Below, piece by piece: positions 33,095 to 38,895 of a stretch of 38,895 bases of DNA. Below the pieces are notes generated by a model. It did no database searches and was not told the DNA's origin. It saw only the letters and a list, made by a program, of their open reading frames with translations. The DNA is from Ignavibacteria bacterium. GTDB taxonomy: Bacteria; Elusimicrobiota; Endomicrobiia; PHAN01. The stretch is taken from assembly GCA_041694835.1 (NCBI GenBank), contig JBGFRZ010000015.1:1-38895 (forward strand), given 5' to 3'. Each line of letters opens with the position of its first letter. Position 1 is the stretch's first letter. The position numbers and the translations under genes were made by a program.

Positions 33095-33930
33095 TTACTG
33101 CCGAAGAATATAAGAACGAAATCAAATCCGCCTGGTGTCCGGGTTGCAGTAATTTTGGAATCCTTACCGCTGTCAGAAACGCTCTCTTCTCAAGCAGGAT
33201 TAAACCCCACGAAATCGTGCTTGTTTCGGGAATCGGTCAGGCAGCCAAACTGCCTCATTATTTGAGATGCAATTTCTTTAACGGACTTCACGGCCGGGCC
33301 CTGCCGGCGGCAACCGCGATAAAAGCTGTAAACCCCAATCTCAAAGTCCTCGTCACCACCGGAGATGGCGATTGTTATGGCGAAGGCGGAAATCATTTTA
33401 TTGGCGCTGTAAGACGCAATCCGGATATTAAGGTGGTTGTTCACAACAATGAAATCTACGCCTTGACAAAAGGTCAGGCATCGCCAACAACGCCGTATGG
33501 AACAAAAACCAAATTACAGTTTGACGGCGTAAAAATACCCCCCTTTGACCCTCTTCTCGTAGCGCTCGCGTTGGGCTGCGGTTTTGTGGCAAGAGGTTTT
33601 GCGGGCGAACTCGTTCATTTGGCTGATTTAATTTCGGAGTCGTTTAAGTTTAAGGGATTCGCTCTTATAGATGTCATTCAGCCATGTATCATATTTGGTC
33701 AACATAAGCCGGAATTTTATAAAGATAAAGTTTTCAAACTTACACGAGAGCATTGTATCTCGGATTATGATTCCGCAATGAAACTTCTGAGAACTTCGAC
33801 CGAAAAAATTCCGATAGGCATATTCTATAAGAAAGAGAGAGAGTGTTTCGGAGCCAAAAGCGATATAACCTGCTCCGAGCCCGAAGTGATAAAAAGAAGT
33901 GTTGCCGAACTGATGAGTGAATTTTGTTAA
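33091..33930 (+). CDS. korB: 2-oxoacid:ferredoxin oxidoreductase beta subunit
   Basis: WCPGC, SGIG, LHGR, TPP motif GDGD..NN, LTKGQASPT, QPC. Confidence 0.92.
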   Translation: MITAEEYKNEIKSAWCPGCSNFGILTAVRNALFSSRIKPHEIVLVSGIGQAAKLPHYLRCNFFNGLHGRALPAATAIKAVNPNLKVLVTTGDGDCYGEGGNHFIGAVRRNPDIKVVVHNNEIYALTKGQASPTTPYGTKTKLQFDGVKIPPFDPLLVALALGCGFVARGFAGELVHLADLISESFKFKGFALIDVIQPCIIFGQHKPEFYKDKVFKLTREHCISDYDSAMKLLRTSTEKIPIGIFYKKERECFGAKSDITCSEPEVIKRSVAELMSEFC

Positions 33931-33943
33931 AATGGAGGACTTT

Positions 33944-34384
33944 ATGCAAAAAAAACTATTGGTGGTTGTCGTAGTATTTTTTGCGGCAACTTTTAATGCA
34001 GTCTTACGAGCCGGAAAAGAAGAAGATGACGCTTTCCGCGTAGAACGTTCTCAATCTTGCGGGTTGGACTGCCGCTCTCATAAAGCGCAAAAAGTAAGCA
34101 AAGAAAAAGAGTCCGGTTTCATCAAAAAAGGAGAAGCAAAAATATCATCGGGGAAAGCGTCGGACAAGAATTTTTCGCCGCAGGATTTTATCGTTGAAAA
34201 ATCCGCTTATGGCAGAACGGTCAGCTGTCCGGTAATGAAAAAGAGATTCAAAATCAATAAGAATACACCGGGCATAAGATACAAAGGCAAAGAATACTAT
34301 ATGTGCTGTCCCGCGTGCGCGGCGCCGTTCAAAAAAGAGCCCCAAAAATATCTAATTCCGGATTCGTTTGAGAAAAAGAAATAA
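33944..34384 (+). CDS. Exported YHS-domain metal-binding protein
   Basis: Signal peptide. CPVM...YKGKEYYMCCPAC..F..EPQKY. GGAGG RBS. Confidence 0.8.
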   Translation: MQKKLLVVVVVFFAATFNAVLRAGKEEDDAFRVERSQSCGLDCRSHKAQKVSKEKESGFIKKGEAKISSGKASDKNFSPQDFIVEKSAYGRTVSCPVMKKRFKINKNTPGIRYKGKEYYMCCPACAAPFKKEPQKYLIPDSFEKKK

Positions 34385-34466: not shown

Positions 34467-34850
34467 ATGGTTAAAAAAAGAGCGGAAGTTTTTAGGTGTG
34501 GTGTTTGTGGAAACATCGTCGAGGTTTTGTTCGCCGGAGGTGGAGAGTTGGTCTGTTGCGGAAAGCCGATGCTCCTTATGGAAGAAAAAACCGAGGAGCA
34601 GGGAAAAGAAAAACACGTTCCCGTGATTGAAGAAACGAAAAACGGTGTAAAAATCAAAGTGGGGGCGGTTCCGCATCCTATGGAAGAAAAACACTACATC
34701 CAATGGATTGAGGTCATAACAGACGAAAAAATCTATCGTAAGTTTTTATCGCCCCCAACCGTGCCCGAAGCCGAGTTTTCGATAAATCCAAAAGAGGTCA
34801 AATTGGTGAGAGAGTACTGCAACGTCCACGGACATTGGAAAAACAAATGA
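34467..34850 (+). CDS. dfx: Desulfoferrodoxin (2Fe superoxide reductase)
   Basis: CGVCG..CCG centre [23 protein letters not shown]. Confidence 0.95.
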
Positions 34851-34853
34851 ACT

Positions 34854-34882
34854 TTGATTGAATCTCGCGAAAGTGATATAAT
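34854..34882 (+). promoter_or_regulatory. Sigma70 promoter candidate for nifS-nifU
   Basis: TTGATT-17 bp-TATAAT with TG extension. Confidence 0.6.
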
Positions 34883-35180
34883 GATGCCGTTGGCAAATCT
34901 TGCCACGAAAAAAAGGAAATTAGTGAATTAGTGGACTGGCGAATTAGTTGTGTGTAGAGACGAGCGTATAGAGGCGAGAGGATAGAAGTTAGAGCAGCAG
35001 AGCAGTAGCAGGGGATTGAGAACAGAAAAAAACAGGAAGCGGAAAGAGAAGAACGCAAAGCGTGAAGGGGGAACGGCTTTTAACTCTTTCCGATATACGC
35101 TTTACGCTTTGCGATATTTTATCTCTTACCCCTAATCTCTAATTCTCTCTTCTGTGGCAAATATCTTTTCAACGGTGTCA
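34882..35180. repeat. Long nested hairpin of 7/8-mer arrays in the nifS leader
   Basis: TGATGCCGTTG / CAACGGTGTCA, TTGCCAC / GTGGCAA, CGCAAAGCGT / ACGCTTTGCG. Confidence 0.65.
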
Positions 35181-35185
35181 TAAAT

Positions 35186-36436
35186 ATGAAAGTGGTATAT
35201 CTTGACAATCAGTCGGCGACACGAATTGACGAGCGCGTCTATGAAGCGATGTTGCCCTACCTTAAGGAAAACTACGGCAATCCTCAAAACCTTCATTCAG
35301 TCGGTTCAAAAGCAAAAGACGCTCTCGATAAATCACGACAACAAACCGCTGAGTTAATCTCTGCCGACCAACGCGAAATCATTTTCACTTCCTGCGGCTC
35401 CGAAGCAAACAACCTCGCCATAAAAGGCATCGCTCAAGCAAATGCAGAAAAAGGCAAACACATAGTCGTATCGGCCATTGAACACTTTTCCGTGCTTTAT
35501 GCCGCAAGACGACTTAAAAGTTTTGGGTTTGAAGTTACAACCGTCGGCGTCGACAAATTCGGAACAATCAATTTTGAAAAATTAGAAAAAGTGATTAGAC
35601 CCGACACGACACTCGTCTCCATACAGCACGCAAATACCGAAATAGGAACTATCCAGCCACTTGTCGAAATCTCAAAAATAATAAAAGAAAAATCCAAAAA
35701 TGCTGTGTTCCATACGGACGCCGTCGGAACGGCTGGTGTCATTGACATAGATGTAAAAAAACTCGGCGTTGACGCTCTTACTTTTTCCGGCTCGCAGTTT
35801 TACGGACCAAAAGGAGCGGCGGCTCTTTATCTCAAAAAAGGTATAAGAATGACAACTCAAATAGACGGCGGAATTCAGGAAGAAGGGCTCCGCGCCGGGA
35901 CGGAAAATGTCCCCGCCATAGTCGGACTCGGAAAGGCGTGTGAACTCGCAAAATCGGAGATGCTCGAAAACAATAAAAAAATGTTTTCGCTCAGAGACAA
36001 ACTTATCGCCGAACTACCTAAAAAAATCAAACACATCTACCTCAACGGACACCATCGCGAACGGCTTCCGAACAACGCCAACTTCTCAATAGAATTTATA
36101 GAAGGCGAAGGAGTCCTTCTTTTTCTAAATCAAAAAGGAATCTGTGTCTCAAGCGGTTCTGCATGCACCTCAAAAGCCCTAAAACTTTCACATGTCCTTG
36201 AGGCGATAAAAGTTGACCCGTCTGTGGCTCAGGGCTCAGTGCTTTTTTCATTGTCGAAATATAACACGAACGAAGAAATAGATTATGTTTTGTCTGAACT
36301 TCCGCCGATAGTTGAGCGACTTCGTTCAATGTCCCCGCTTTACGCTCATTTCATAAAAACCGGCGAGCGGCTCAAAGCGGGACCCGGAACTGATTATATA
36401 CACCGTCACAATGTTGAAAATGATTCAATCCGCTGA
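35186..36436 (+). CDS. nifS: Group I cysteine desulfurase homologue (NifS/IscS) with a non-canonical PLP site
   Basis: YLDN, GNP, FTSCGSEANN, EH, RAGTEN, SSGSAC. It reads SGSQFYGPKG where SGHKxYGPKG is expected. Confidence 0.9.
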   Translation: MKVVYLDNQSATRIDERVYEAMLPYLKENYGNPQNLHSVGSKAKDALDKSRQQTAELISADQREIIFTSCGSEANNLAIKGIAQANAEKGKHIVVSAIEHFSVLYAARRLKSFGFEVTTVGVDKFGTINFEKLEKVIRPDTTLVSIQHANTEIGTIQPLVEISKIIKEKSKNAVFHTDAVGTAGVIDIDVKKLGVDALTFSGSQFYGPKGAAALYLKKGIRMTTQIDGGIQEEGLRAGTENVPAIVGLGKACELAKSEMLENNKKMFSLRDKLIAELPKKIKHIYLNGHHRERLPNNANFSIEFIEGEGVLLFLNQKGICVSSGSACTSKALKLSHVLEAIKVDPSVAQGSVLFSLSKYNTNEEIDYVLSELPPIVERLRSMSPLYAHFIKTGERLKAGPGTDYIHRHNVENDSIR

Positions 36437-36658
36437 TGAGGAATCTTATTCTGATATTGAATCAAAAAGCAAAACAGTGATTTAAGAGCACAAGATACAG
36501 GAATTGTAGCGGTGGGATTGCATCCCACAAACACACCCCTGCACCCCTCTTAGTAGAGGGGAAATTGGCGAATGGCAATCCCGACACGCTTCGCTATCGG
36601 GACATGTTTCACCCGATACTTATGCCTTGTGGCATGTGCAGTAATTTAGGAGGAATAA

Positions 36659-37042
36659 ATGTCTTTTTATTCTGATAAAGTAATGGAACACTTCTCCAAT
36701 CCCAAAAATGTAGGAGAAATCAAGGACGCCGACGGAATAGGCGAGATGGGGAACCCTGTCTGCGGCGATATGATGACATTTTACATCAAGGTAAATGACA
36801 ATAAAATTGAGGATGTCAAATTTAAAACATTTGGTTGTGGTGCAGCGATAGCGGTGTCGTCGATGGTCTCTGAGATGGCGAAGGGAAAAACGCTTGATGA
36901 GGCGCTCAAAATCACAAACGCATCTGTCGCCAAAGAACTCGGCGGACTGCCTCCGAACAAAATGCACTGCTCGAATCTTGGAGCGGATGCACTTCACAAA
37001 GCGATAGAAGACTATAAAAAAAGAACGAAGGAGGCAAAATGA
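36659..37042 (+). CDS. nifU: Fe-S scaffold NifU-N/IscU
   Basis: YSDKVMEHFSNPKNVG, GNPVCGD, FKTFGCG, LPPNKMHCS. Confidence 0.95.
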   Translation: MSFYSDKVMEHFSNPKNVGEIKDADGIGEMGNPVCGDMMTFYIKVNDNKIEDVKFKTFGCGAAIAVSSMVSEMAKGKTLDEALKITNASVAKELGGLPPNKMHCSNLGADALHKAIEDYKKRTKEAK

Positions 37043-37160
37043 AATCCCCCTCTTCCCCTCTAAAAAGAGGGGTTAGGGGTGTGTTAAGAGAGATTGTGTC
37101 TGGGGTGTCTTGAAAAGTAGGGGATTTGCTATAGTTTTTAAATAATCGGAGGATTAAAAG

Positions 37161-37361
37161 ATGTCTATTCGACGACCAAATGACAAAAAATATCAAGCGG
37201 AAAAATGCCATTGCCCAAATTGCGAGGAAGAACTCAAGTTCAGTTGCTTCGAACCTCCGTTTTGCGTCCCCTGCCAAATCAAATTCAAAAACTGCAAAAC
37301 CTGCGGAGAAATGGTCGGTGAAAATCTCAAAACCTGTCCCCACTGCGGCAGGGGAATGTAA
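37161..37361 (+). CDS. Small double zinc-ribbon protein
   Basis: Four CxxC pairs in 66 aa. GGAGG RBS. Confidence 0.75.
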   Translation: MSIRRPNDKKYQAEKCHCPNCEEELKFSCFEPPFCVPCQIKFKNCKTCGEMVGENLKTCPHCGRGM

Positions 37362-37392
37362 AATACAAAACAATTCTACCGTTGATGACCAC

Positions 37393-37529
37393 TTGACAAA
37401 AATAAATTTGTATGATAGAATGATACTATAGGGTGTACCGCTGTAGATGGACAGATGATTTAGTATTATGCTGACAAGACTGCGATTTTTGTCACATGCT
37501 TGACTTATTTTTTCTTTATTTGGTAGAAT
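37393..37529 (+). promoter_or_regulatory. Two tandem sigma70 promoter candidates
   Basis: TTGACA-17-TAGAAT (37393-37421) and TTGACT-18-TAGAAT (37500-37529), both with TG extension. Confidence 0.6.
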
Positions 37530-37635
37530 TTCATAAGAGGCAAAAAGTGATACCTCTGCTAAAAATTAGGGGAATAGATATTCATGAACATTCACAATAA
37601 AATTTGTGATGTATTATTCGTGAGAGGGAGGGATT

Positions 37636-38895
37636 ATGCGTAAGGGTTCAGGGTTGGTTTTATGTTGTTGCTTGTTACTTGTCGCTTGTTGCTGCCTTTA
37701 CTCGGCAACACCGAACAAGGTTAAGTACCAGGGTGTGCTGAAGGAAAAGGGTTCGTTGGTAACAGGAAGGAAAACGATGCAGTTCCGTATTACCAATTTG
37801 GATGGTTCAACTGCTTACTGGGGCAGCGGCAACGTTTCGGTTGAAGTTGCCCAGGGCGTTTTTACTTACACGCTTGAACCGACCGGAATAAACTGGTCAA
37901 CAGGAGGACCTTACTATTTAGAGGTAACTGTTGGTGGACAACTGCTTTCACCGCGTGAAGAGATTGGTTCAACCGTGTATGCATTACAGGCAAAGAACAT
38001 AGATGATAATGCAATAACATCTGCCAAAATACTTGATGGAACAATTGCAAATGCTGATATATCACCAACCGCAGCGATTTCTGCATCAAAACTTTCTGGT
38101 GTTTTAACAGTCGGTGGAAACCGCACAGATGCAAATCTTGATGCACTCACAGGCGGTGGAGCAACAGCGCTGCACACACATATTGGAGGCGGTGCCGGCG
38201 GCGGTCTGGGCACTCATATAGCGACAATGACATTAAATATGTCAAATTTTCCTATTATAAATGTTGCAACTATTTCAGCGACAGGAAGTATTCTTTTTTC
38301 AGGAAATGTTGGCGCTATCCCTATGCAAGGTGCAGGGACACGGCTGATGTGGTATCCTGCAAAAAGAGCCTTCAGAGCAGGGGAAGTTAGTGGAACACAA
38401 TGGAATGATGCAAATATCGGCAGTTACTCAACCGCAATGGGATATGACACAACCGCCAGCGGTAATTGGACTGCAATTGCTATGGGGTGGGTCACAACCG
38501 CCAGCGGGGACGCCTCAACCGCAATGGGATCAAACACAACCGCCAGCGGGTACATCTCAACCGCAATGGGAGAAGGCACAACCGCCAGCGGACTTGCCGC
38601 AACCGCAATGGGAAAATACACAACTGCCAGCGGGAACACCTCAATCGCAATGGGTGAGAATATAACAGCAGGTCCTGCTGCTAATACTATCGCTATTGGT
38701 AGAGGTATTGATAATACCAATCGCCTTGTCAATAATACTGCCAACACATTTGCAGTTGGCTTCAACAGAACCACCCCGACTTTAACAGTTTCTTCGTGGA
38801 CGGTAGTTGGTGATGGCAGTTTATTATTTTCAGGAACTTATGGTGGTATTCCAGCACAAGGTGCAGGGACACGGCTGATGTGGTATCCTGCAAAA
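37636..38895 (+). CDS. Large secreted surface/fibre protein with YadA-head-like repeats, 3'-truncated by the window end
   Basis: GGAGG RBS. Open frame to the end of the window: signal peptide, VKYQGVL...YYLEV...LSPRE...VYA domain, ITSAKILDG, GAGTRLMWYPAK twice, STAMGxxTTASG repeats. Absent from the ORF track because it has no stop. Confidence 0.88.
   Translation, partial: MRKGSGLVLCCCLLLVACCCLYSATPNKVKYQGVLKEKGSLVTGRKTMQFRITNLDGSTAYWGSGNVSVEVAQGVFTYTLEPTGINWSTGGPYYLEVTVGGQLLSPREEIGSTVYALQAKNIDDNAITSAKILDGTIANADISPTAAISASKLSGVLTVGGNRTDANLDALTGGGATALHTHIGGGAGGGLGTHIATMTLNMSNFPIINVATISATGSILFSGNVGAIPMQGAGTRLMWYPAKRAFRAGEVSGTQWNDANIGSYSTAMGYDTTASGNWTAIAMGWVTTASGDASTAMGSNTTASGYISTAMGEGTTASGLAATAMGKYTTASGNTSIAMGENITAGPAANTIAIGRGIDNTNRLVNNTANTFAVGFNRTTPTLTVSSWTVVGDGSLLFSGTYGGIPAQGAGTRLMWYPAK
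38428..38670 (+). repeat. ~42-bp coding tandem repeat (about 6 units)
   Basis: TCAACCGCAATGGG-N7-ACAACCGCCAGCGG units encoding 14-aa Hep/Hag repeats. Confidence 0.9.

Follow-up and report, generated by a model that had tools for sequence, protein, structure and literature searches.

A NifS-like protein lacking the Schiff-base lysine, predicted to act as a non-enzymatic scaffold partner, is encoded with NifU and a zinc-ribbon protein in an Elusimicrobiota genome

In this work we analysed a stretch of 38,895 nucleotides from an Elusimicrobiota genome (contig JBGFRZ010000015.1, hereafter the window), in which positions 35186-37361 hold three open reading frames (ORFs) on the plus strand, encoding a NifS-like protein that we call NifS*, the scaffold protein NifU and a Cys-rich protein that we call ZnR. 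NifS* has lost the lysine that forms the Schiff base with pyridoxal 5'-phosphate (PLP), together with three other catalytic residues, and, judged from its sequence, the known route of Lys-dependent PLP chemistry is closed to it. We consider it likely, with a probability of about 0.7, that NifS* is a catalytically dead paralogue of the type I desulfurases and has been retained to assist the U-type scaffold in a non-enzymatic role. The dead-desulfurase kind itself is already known from Archaeoglobus fulgidus; the bacterial additions are a C-terminal tail motif and ZnR.

Results

Four catalytic residues are lost in NifS*

NifS* (416 amino acids, 35186..36436, + strand) has the fold of type I cysteine desulfurases and matches Pfam Aminotran_5 (PF00266) at 1.6e-77. 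Its nearest NCBIfam model is that of NifS (TIGR03402), which it matches with 495 bits, under the cut-off of 530.75, and it stays below the equivalog cut-offs of both NifS and IscS; public databases name members of its clade active cysteine desulfurase or NifS. Four positions of the active site are changed (Q to G181, H to S203, K to Q204 and R to L353). Ser203-Gln204 (codons TCG CAG, 35792..35797) stand opposite the canonical His-Lys pair, of which the Lys is the PLP Schiff-base residue; the Gln204 codon, CAG at 35795-35797, lies in the context F-S-G-S-Q-F-Y-G-P-K-G. Gly181 (codon GGA, 35726..35728) is opposite the PLP-binding Gln (PLP-O3') of HTDAVQ, and Leu353 (36242..36244) is opposite the Arg that binds the substrate carboxylate. 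The E. coli equivalents are K206 for the Schiff-base Lys, Gln183, His205 and, for the substrate Arg, R354. When NifS* is aligned to solved desulfurases with HMMER, Q204 falls in the column of the SAHK Lys and G181 in that of the HTDAVQ Gln, and MAFFT alignments that include the genome's own canonical paralogue and many homologues place both residues identically. The initial annotation, made from the letters of the window alone, had proposed that Gln204 replaces the Schiff-base Lys and that a Gln is missing from HTDAVG; the codon and the alignments confirm both points, and the losses at Ser203 and Leu353 come in addition to them. It had also described the Cys of the SSGSAC loop and the NifU ligands as intact, and they are: Cys327 of this flexible loop (36164..36166) is a Cys in all of the 120 closest homologues, and the NifU ligands Cys35, Asp37, Cys60, His103 and Cys104 are invariant in nine aligned sequences.

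The Lys and the other lost residues go together in relatives. Among 115 Lys-bearing representatives the Arg is present at the 353 site in 114 and the Gln at the 181 site in 109, and among 80 metagenome loci the Arg is found in 69/69 Lys-bearing and 0/11 Lys-less copies. The pocket residues His100, Asn150, Asp178, Thr239 and Ser72 are conserved in NifS*. Set against what defines an active IscS/NifS (EC 2.8.1.7), the protein has the fold and the loop Cys, and lacks the Lys, the Gln and His, and the Arg. The Lys of the GPKG motif, K209, is ruled out as a substitute Schiff-base residue, being equally conserved in Lys-bearing enzymes (110/115), and comparison of alignment columns with the Lys-bearing representatives revealed no Lys column of the active site specific to the NifS* clade.

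An AlphaFold2 model of NifS*, built on a 58-row alignment, has a pLDDT (predicted local distance difference test) of 92.5 and a pTM (predicted template modelling score) of 0.90. Confidence is low only at residues 405-416, where pLDDT is below 50, and at the Cys loop (327-329), which is consistent with flexibility of this loop. With this model Foldseek retrieved NFS1, A. fulgidus IscS, E. coli IscS and NifS structures at TM scores of 0.85-0.98; the A. fulgidus chains 4hvk and 4eb5 (TM 0.87-0.98) gave the lowest root mean square deviation (1.1-1.3 Å, 1.1 Å for 4hvk) and the highest identity (46-48%) among the chains listed.

A large bacterial clade shares these losses

The best 120 matches to NifS* in a collection of 5.8 billion proteins are 62-79% identical to it and come from Elusimicrobia, Endomicrobiales, WOR-3, Thermodesulfobacteriota, Planctomycetota, Poribacteria, Firestonebacteria and Desantisbacteria. 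They carry Q (95), T (15), E (4), A (3), S (1), I (1) or L (1) at position 204 and L (96), T (15), V (8) or S (1) at position 353, while Cys327, His100 and Asp178 are each present in 120/120. Chance, or a sequencing or assembly error, as the source of Gln204 is excluded, because none of these 120 homologues has Lys204 or Arg353. The initial annotation had suggested surveying homologues for a K-to-Q clade, and the survey uncovered a large clade without the Lys, most of whose surveyed members have Gln. More widely, 22 of the best 150 representatives of 50%-identity clusters lack the Schiff-base Lys. One representative that falls in the NifS* clade (P0123) keeps His-Lys, yet has Ala for the PLP Gln and Leu for the substrate Arg, and may represent either a transitional stage of the losses or a reversal. 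The best representative match, P0121, is 550 amino acids long, has two matched stretches and could be a fusion variant of the Lys-less proteins.

The closest known system is that of A. fulgidus. The A. fulgidus IscS is reported to have Asp199 in the place of the Lys and no desulfurase activity; in the IscS-IscU(D35A) complex one of its Cys is reported to coordinate the [2Fe-2S] cluster, and sulfide has been put forward as the source of its sulfur (PMC8918507, PMC7585200); it is described as binding pyridoxamine 5'-phosphate (PMP) non-covalently, and the D199K variant as also carrying PMP rather than PLP (PMC8918507). The traits that the initial annotation had named for this protein (an Asp, inactivity, a Cys as cluster ligand) are those given in the two papers. 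The likeness to NifS* goes further. A. fulgidus IscS2 (PDB 4hvk, 4eb5, 4eb7; D199K variant 4r5f) has the type I fold in common with NifS* (391 bits) and, as read from alignments of two Asp-type representatives to 4eb5, it has DATA / SSND / ...TLLLTL, that is Gln to Ala, His to Asn, Lys to Asp and Arg to Leu at the same four sites. In both cases the Cys loop is kept and a single-domain IscU is encoded alongside (here NifU, with three Cys, an Asp and a His). In contrast with NifS*, the A. fulgidus protein is archaeal and 382 amino acids long, has Asp at the Lys site, where the NifS* clade has Gln, Val or Thr, and lacks the KTGxR...GPGTDYxHxH tail. No ZnR is encoded beside IscU in L050, the single locus of A. 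fulgidus type that was fetched. Finally, A. fulgidus is reported to have SufB*C (10.1101/2024.03.20.586028), whereas the NifS* genome gave no SufB/D match.

We built a FastTree tree of 147 rows, leaving out proteins shorter than 340 or longer than 450 amino acids, and a quick IQ-TREE tree of 68 rows (6 close homologues, 19 other Lys-less and 43 Lys-bearing representatives). Both contain a clade made of NifS*, 16 Lys-less rows and one Lys-bearing row (P0123), and a separate A. fulgidus-type clade of five rows, with weak branches between the two. When the two clades were forced together, in a group named after the first tree, the log-likelihood was 8.5 above that of the free search (p-AU 0.60). 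A single ancient loss of the Lys, shared by the NifS* clade and the A. fulgidus type, is not rejected by these sequence comparisons.

Other known systems are more distant. Canonical IscS/NifS proteins (E. coli IscS, 1p3w; the T. maritima NifS-like protein, 1ecx; the canonical copy of this genome) resemble NifS* in fold and in dimer-type architecture, have the Cys loop and the GPKG motif as it does, and are likewise paired with a U-type scaffold; unlike NifS*, they keep all four residues that it has replaced (the Schiff-base Lys and its neighbouring His, the PLP Gln and the substrate Arg). The MIS and SMS systems were reportedly defined by Garcia et al. in 2022. The MIS, or minimal ISC system, of anaerobes (MisS-MisU / IscSU*) resembles NifS*-NifU as a two-gene unit of a desulfurase-like protein and a single-domain scaffold. 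It is described with a cysteine desulfurase (PMC12192291, PMC13066941), whereas the corresponding protein of the NifS* system is predicted to be inactive and is accompanied by a third, Cys-rich component, and the genome has an Nfu-type domain at another place. IscS1 of the archaeon Methanosarcina acetivorans, uncharacterised, is reported to lack the catalytic Lys and suggested to be A. fulgidus IscS-like (PMC7585200); it is likened to NifS* by this description only.

The clade has a tail motif of its own and unusual pocket cysteines

NifS* ends in a clade-specific tail, K391-T-G-x-R395-x-x-A398-G-P-G-T-D-Y404-x-H406-x-H408 followed by a variable acidic or His-rich end (36356..36433, + strand). 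The motif KTGxRxxAGPGTDYxHxH is nearly invariant in the best 120 homologues and gapped in almost all other representatives, and the core GPG[TAS][DE][YF] is found in 115 of the 120. After this core come a median of nine residues, with a median fraction of His, Glu and Asp of 0.75 and a median of three His (for example ...YEHEHEHEE or ...YEHHHHHEE). The tail is probably an arm for metal (Fe2+) binding or delivery, by analogy with the His-rich tails of metallochaperones.

Two Cys line the former PLP pocket in this clade. Cys70 (35393-35395 in the window) is present in 110 and Cys181 in 55 of the 120 closest homologues; the 115 Lys-bearing representatives have Cys at 181 in no case and at 70 in 13. 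The NifS* of the window has Cys70 and a Gly at 181.

ZnR accompanies NifS* and NifU

NifU (127 amino acids, 36659..37042, + strand) is a single-domain NifU/IscU scaffold (Pfam NifU_N, 5.6e-52; TIGR03419, 208.5 for a cut-off of 187.9). ZnR (66 amino acids, 37161..37361, + strand) is a Cys-rich double zinc-ribbon protein present in one full copy in the genome, with nine Cys in the pattern CxCxxC...C...C...CxxC...CxxC that are invariant among eight orthologues. It has a weak match to the UPF0547 zinc ribbon of Pfam (25.2 bits, below the 29-bit cut-off), and a word search confined to proteins of lengths near that of ZnR returned no homologue candidate sharing enough words.

The surroundings of the Lys-less genes were compared in 30 loci outside the window (12 from genome contigs, 11 from metagenomes and 7 from related genomes, after L122, a duplicate of L013, had been dropped). 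A nifU gene lies within 700 bp in 26 of them, and two of the other four loci end within 455 bp of the gene. Of these 26 loci, 13 have a separate ZnR, five (Aminicenantes-type) a ZnR fused to the C-terminus of NifU in a protein of 190-193 amino acids, and four another Cys-rich NifU extension, with 5-12 Cys, beyond reach of the ZnR profile. The remaining four have none; they include the A. fulgidus-type locus L050 and two loci of a genus in which SufB occurs as well. Among 45 Lys-bearing loci with nifU, the sole ZnR match is in a cluster that also holds NifS* (L117), which leaves 0/45 with an independent ZnR. In a sample of 61 genomes of the phylum, in which an identity of at least 57% was required of a NifS* orthologue, ZnR was found (E<=1e-6) in 17 of the 27 genomes with NifS* and, as a partial match, in one of the 34 without; its distance from nifS* is no more than about 1.3 kb in 16 of the 17 NifS* genomes that carry it. 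The conserved synteny and the natural fusion to NifU support the earlier suggestion that the zinc-ribbon protein is a partner of this system. A complex prediction for NifU and ZnR, run without controls, scored 0.01, which gives no answer and is evidence neither way. As to what ZnR does, our guesses are that it is a redox module or that it relays metal or sulfide. In one of the loci with another extension (L120:1984-2577, - strand), NifU has 197 amino acids and its C-terminal extension has 12 Cys in CxC/CxxC runs unlike the ZnR profile; it seems to meet the same need in a different way.

The trio is the only scaffold-based assembly system found in the genome

The genome is 1.9 Mb in size and 97% complete. 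A search for SUFBD_core gave no match in it, whereas even the SufB of M. jannaschii is picked up by the control search; NifU_N has a single match, the nifU gene described here, and neither an IscA-type carrier nor HscB was found. The nifS*-nifU-ZnR trio is thus the only scaffold-based Fe-S assembly system found in this genome, and NifS*, which accompanies the only scaffold, must matter for Fe-S supply. The layout is that of minimal ISC systems, with a desulfurase-like protein and a U-type scaffold and with no HscB, IscA or SufB/D; Fdx and HscA were not among the proteins searched for. One Nfu-type domain is present (G000:C74:3856-6605), about 1.4 kb upstream of a sulfite-reductase-like ORF (a 773-amino-acid open frame), and it is the only Nfu-type carrier domain in the genome.

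The initial annotation had also raised the question of another desulfurase, and two Lys-bearing relatives were found. One is a canonical IscS (HTDAVQ, FSAHK, AVRFS, STGSAC) encoded on another contig (C54), immediately upstream of an mnmA-like gene; the other is group-II-like (FSGHK) and lies between an Rrf2-type regulator and cysH-/sat-like genes, the neighbours of both being named by reading their translations. All 27 genomes with NifS* in the phylum sample hold a second copy, at 41-52% identity, which is canonical, and SufB/D is found in four of the 61 genomes. The dead and canonical copies share one gene cluster in three of the eight loci fetched, in the order mnmA-iscS-nifS*-nifU in L115 and L116 and nifS*-nifU-ZnR-iscS in L117. 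In five genomes of one family without NifS* (L123-L127, family f10), a three-domain NifU of 282-318 amino acids is encoded directly beside a Lys-bearing NifS; the phylum thus uses two alternative, mutually exclusive Fe-S arrangements.

Discussion

The properties of NifS* and the precedent of A. fulgidus suggest how a non-enzymatic partner might work. By analogy with A. fulgidus IscS-IscU, NifS* and NifU would most likely form an (NifS*-NifU)2 complex, in which NifU would carry the nascent [2Fe-2S] cluster and Cys327 of the flexible loop would bind this cluster as its fourth ligand. A cofactor, PMP or PLP, may be retained non-covalently in the former PLP pocket as a structural element. Sulfur would come from free sulfide, or from persulfide transfer by the co-resident canonical IscS, rather than from catalysis by NifS*; to this the bacterial clade would add its C-terminal His/Glu tail, as a putative metal arm, and ZnR, as a NifU partner. 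The initial annotation had envisaged ambient sulfide or a non-covalent cofactor chemistry: the cofactor part agrees with the conservation of His100, Asp178, Asn150 and Thr239, while the ambient-sulfide part fared less well, a canonical IscS being present.

If NifS* is indeed a dead partner, we place the free-sulfide route somewhat short of even odds and the IscS relay route somewhat lower, as a tentative option. The former is plausible because the genome is anaerobe-like, with desulfoferrodoxin encoded upstream of nifS* and sulfate-assimilation-/sulfite-reductase-like genes. To build oxidised clusters from Fe2+ and S2-, electrons must be removed and not added, so that a rubredoxin-like role of the Cys4 ribbons is one guess for ZnR. 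In E. coli, IscU is reported to be able to use H2S when IscS is absent (PMC13015791).

Several points weigh against a non-enzymatic role of NifS* in a three-gene system. For the bacterial members, the lack of activity, the cofactor, the complex and the cluster ligation are all inferred, and the canonical IscS might serve NifU, NifS* being dispensable or regulatory. ZnR is absent, at E<=1e-6, from 10 of the 27 genomes with NifS*, and no ZnR of any kind is found in four of the 26 Lys-less loci with nifU. Moreover, the ZnR profile is short and built from NifS*-adjacent loci, which biases it towards the NifS* clade, and the related genomes and loci are non-independent samples. Finally, A. fulgidus iscS2U2 is reported to have failed to complement an E. 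coli Fe-S mutant (10.1101/2024.03.20.586028), so that even the model system comes without in vivo proof.

The most serious alternative keeps the premise of a dead enzyme and differs only in the sulfur route: the canonical IscS would make a persulfide from cysteine and transfer it to the NifS* residue Cys327, perhaps with the two proteins joined in an IscS:NifS* heterodimer, and NifS* would hand it to NifU as a persulfide acceptor or shuttle like SufE or SufU. It has to be taken seriously because a canonical copy is present in all 27 genomes with NifS* and shares the cluster in three of eight loci (L115, L116 and L117), and the strict conservation of the Cys loop in the NifS* clade also speaks for it. 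On the other hand, the canonical iscS of this genome is on another contig beside mnmA, which suggests a role in tRNA thiolation, and in three other genomes the canonical iscS is not beside nifU; no electron donor for persulfide reduction was identified, and we know of no precedent for persulfide transfer between two desulfurase paralogues. We regard this relay as possible without favouring it. A bolder version of the non-enzymatic reading, in which NifS*-NifU-ZnR would be a distinct three-component Fe-S machine, and the sole one in many SUF-less anaerobes, is slightly more doubtful still; NifS* would then be a cluster-ligating iron chaperone acting through its His/Glu tail, and ZnR would supply a function (redox, sulfide or metal handling) absent from the two-gene minimal ISC systems that have been moved into E. 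coli.

NifS* could also be more than a passive scaffold partner if the former PLP pocket had been repurposed for a new chemistry or ligand, for example as a metal, sulfide or cluster site made of the new Cys and the Cys327 loop. The frequency of Cys70 and Cys181 among the closest homologues, the absence of Cys181 from all Lys-bearing representatives and the fact that the pocket residues are still under constraint are in keeping with this idea, but the NifS* of the window itself has Gly181, and Cys70 as a special new ligand loses weight because some Lys-bearing enzymes (13/115) carry it as well. We consider this repurposing improbable. Still less credible is a NifS* that remains an active desulfurase, using PLP held non-covalently, or with a different base or Lys doing the work of K206. 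The conservation of His100, Asp178, Asn150, Ser72 and Thr239, and the report that A. fulgidus IscS still binds PMP or PLP (PMC8918507), could be read in its favour; against it, four catalytic residues including the substrate Arg are lost together, the clade has no compensating Lys of its own, and the A. fulgidus protein is described as inactive, its D199K variant still carrying PMP and not PLP (PMC8918507). That the gene is a decaying, functionless relic, as the loss of catalytic residues might suggest, is effectively refuted by conservation and hardly worth entertaining, given the open frame, the 120 homologues at 62-79% identity over several phyla, the many invariant columns, the added invariant tail motif and the conserved synteny.

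We thus favour the catalytically dead scaffold partner, which bears on the wider problem of how minimal ISC-type systems build clusters free of accessory proteins; the A. fulgidus system does so without even a working desulfurase. According to the preprint cited above (10.1101/2024.03.20.586028), E. coli was complemented neither by iscSU of A. fulgidus nor by that of M. thermoacetophila, and the question is raised there which part these systems lack. Far from being an archaeal curiosity, the dead-desulfurase form makes up a large conserved bacterial clade in several uncultured phyla, including Elusimicrobia, WOR-3 and Aminicenantes; in the limited literature that we searched we found no description of this Lys-less clade, its tail or its ZnR partner. 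The His-rich tail and the zinc ribbon are two candidates for the missing parts of minimal systems. The three-component reading, if true, would explain the non-complementation by archaeal iscSU and would show U-type scaffolds running on sulfide. For metabolic reconstructions from metagenomes, desulfurase calls that fall in the NifS* clade should not be counted as cysteine-dependent sulfur mobilisation.

Other features of the locus

A promoter-like site, TTGATT-17-TATAAT, lies upstream of nifS* (34854..34882, + strand; a consensus match only), and consensus matching revealed no terminator-like site on the plus strand between nifS*, nifU and ZnR. An Rfam scan of 34800-37700 gave nothing at E<=0.1. 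The spacers of the cluster are 222 bp (nifS*-nifU) and 118 bp (nifU-ZnR), compared with typically 2-50 bp in relatives, and each contains one copy of a palindrome resembling repetitive extragenic palindromic elements, CCCCTCT-N4-AGAGGGG (36544..36561 and 37055..37072). This palindrome occurs at 30 sites in the genome, against none for a reversed control, and probably explains the wide spacers. Upstream of the cluster are a gene (33917-34384) for a YHS-domain protein that has a hydrophobic stretch at its N-terminus and then the desulfoferrodoxin gene (34467-34850); at the same place a relative (L010) has rubredoxin-like and rubrerythrin-like ORFs, as read from their translations, and nifS* may be commonly flanked by oxidative-stress genes. 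Downstream, an ORF at 37636-38895, which runs off the end of the window, encodes a large, secreted-looking protein with Gly/Thr/Ala-rich repeats (TASG..TAMG) and a weak match to the YadA head repeat.

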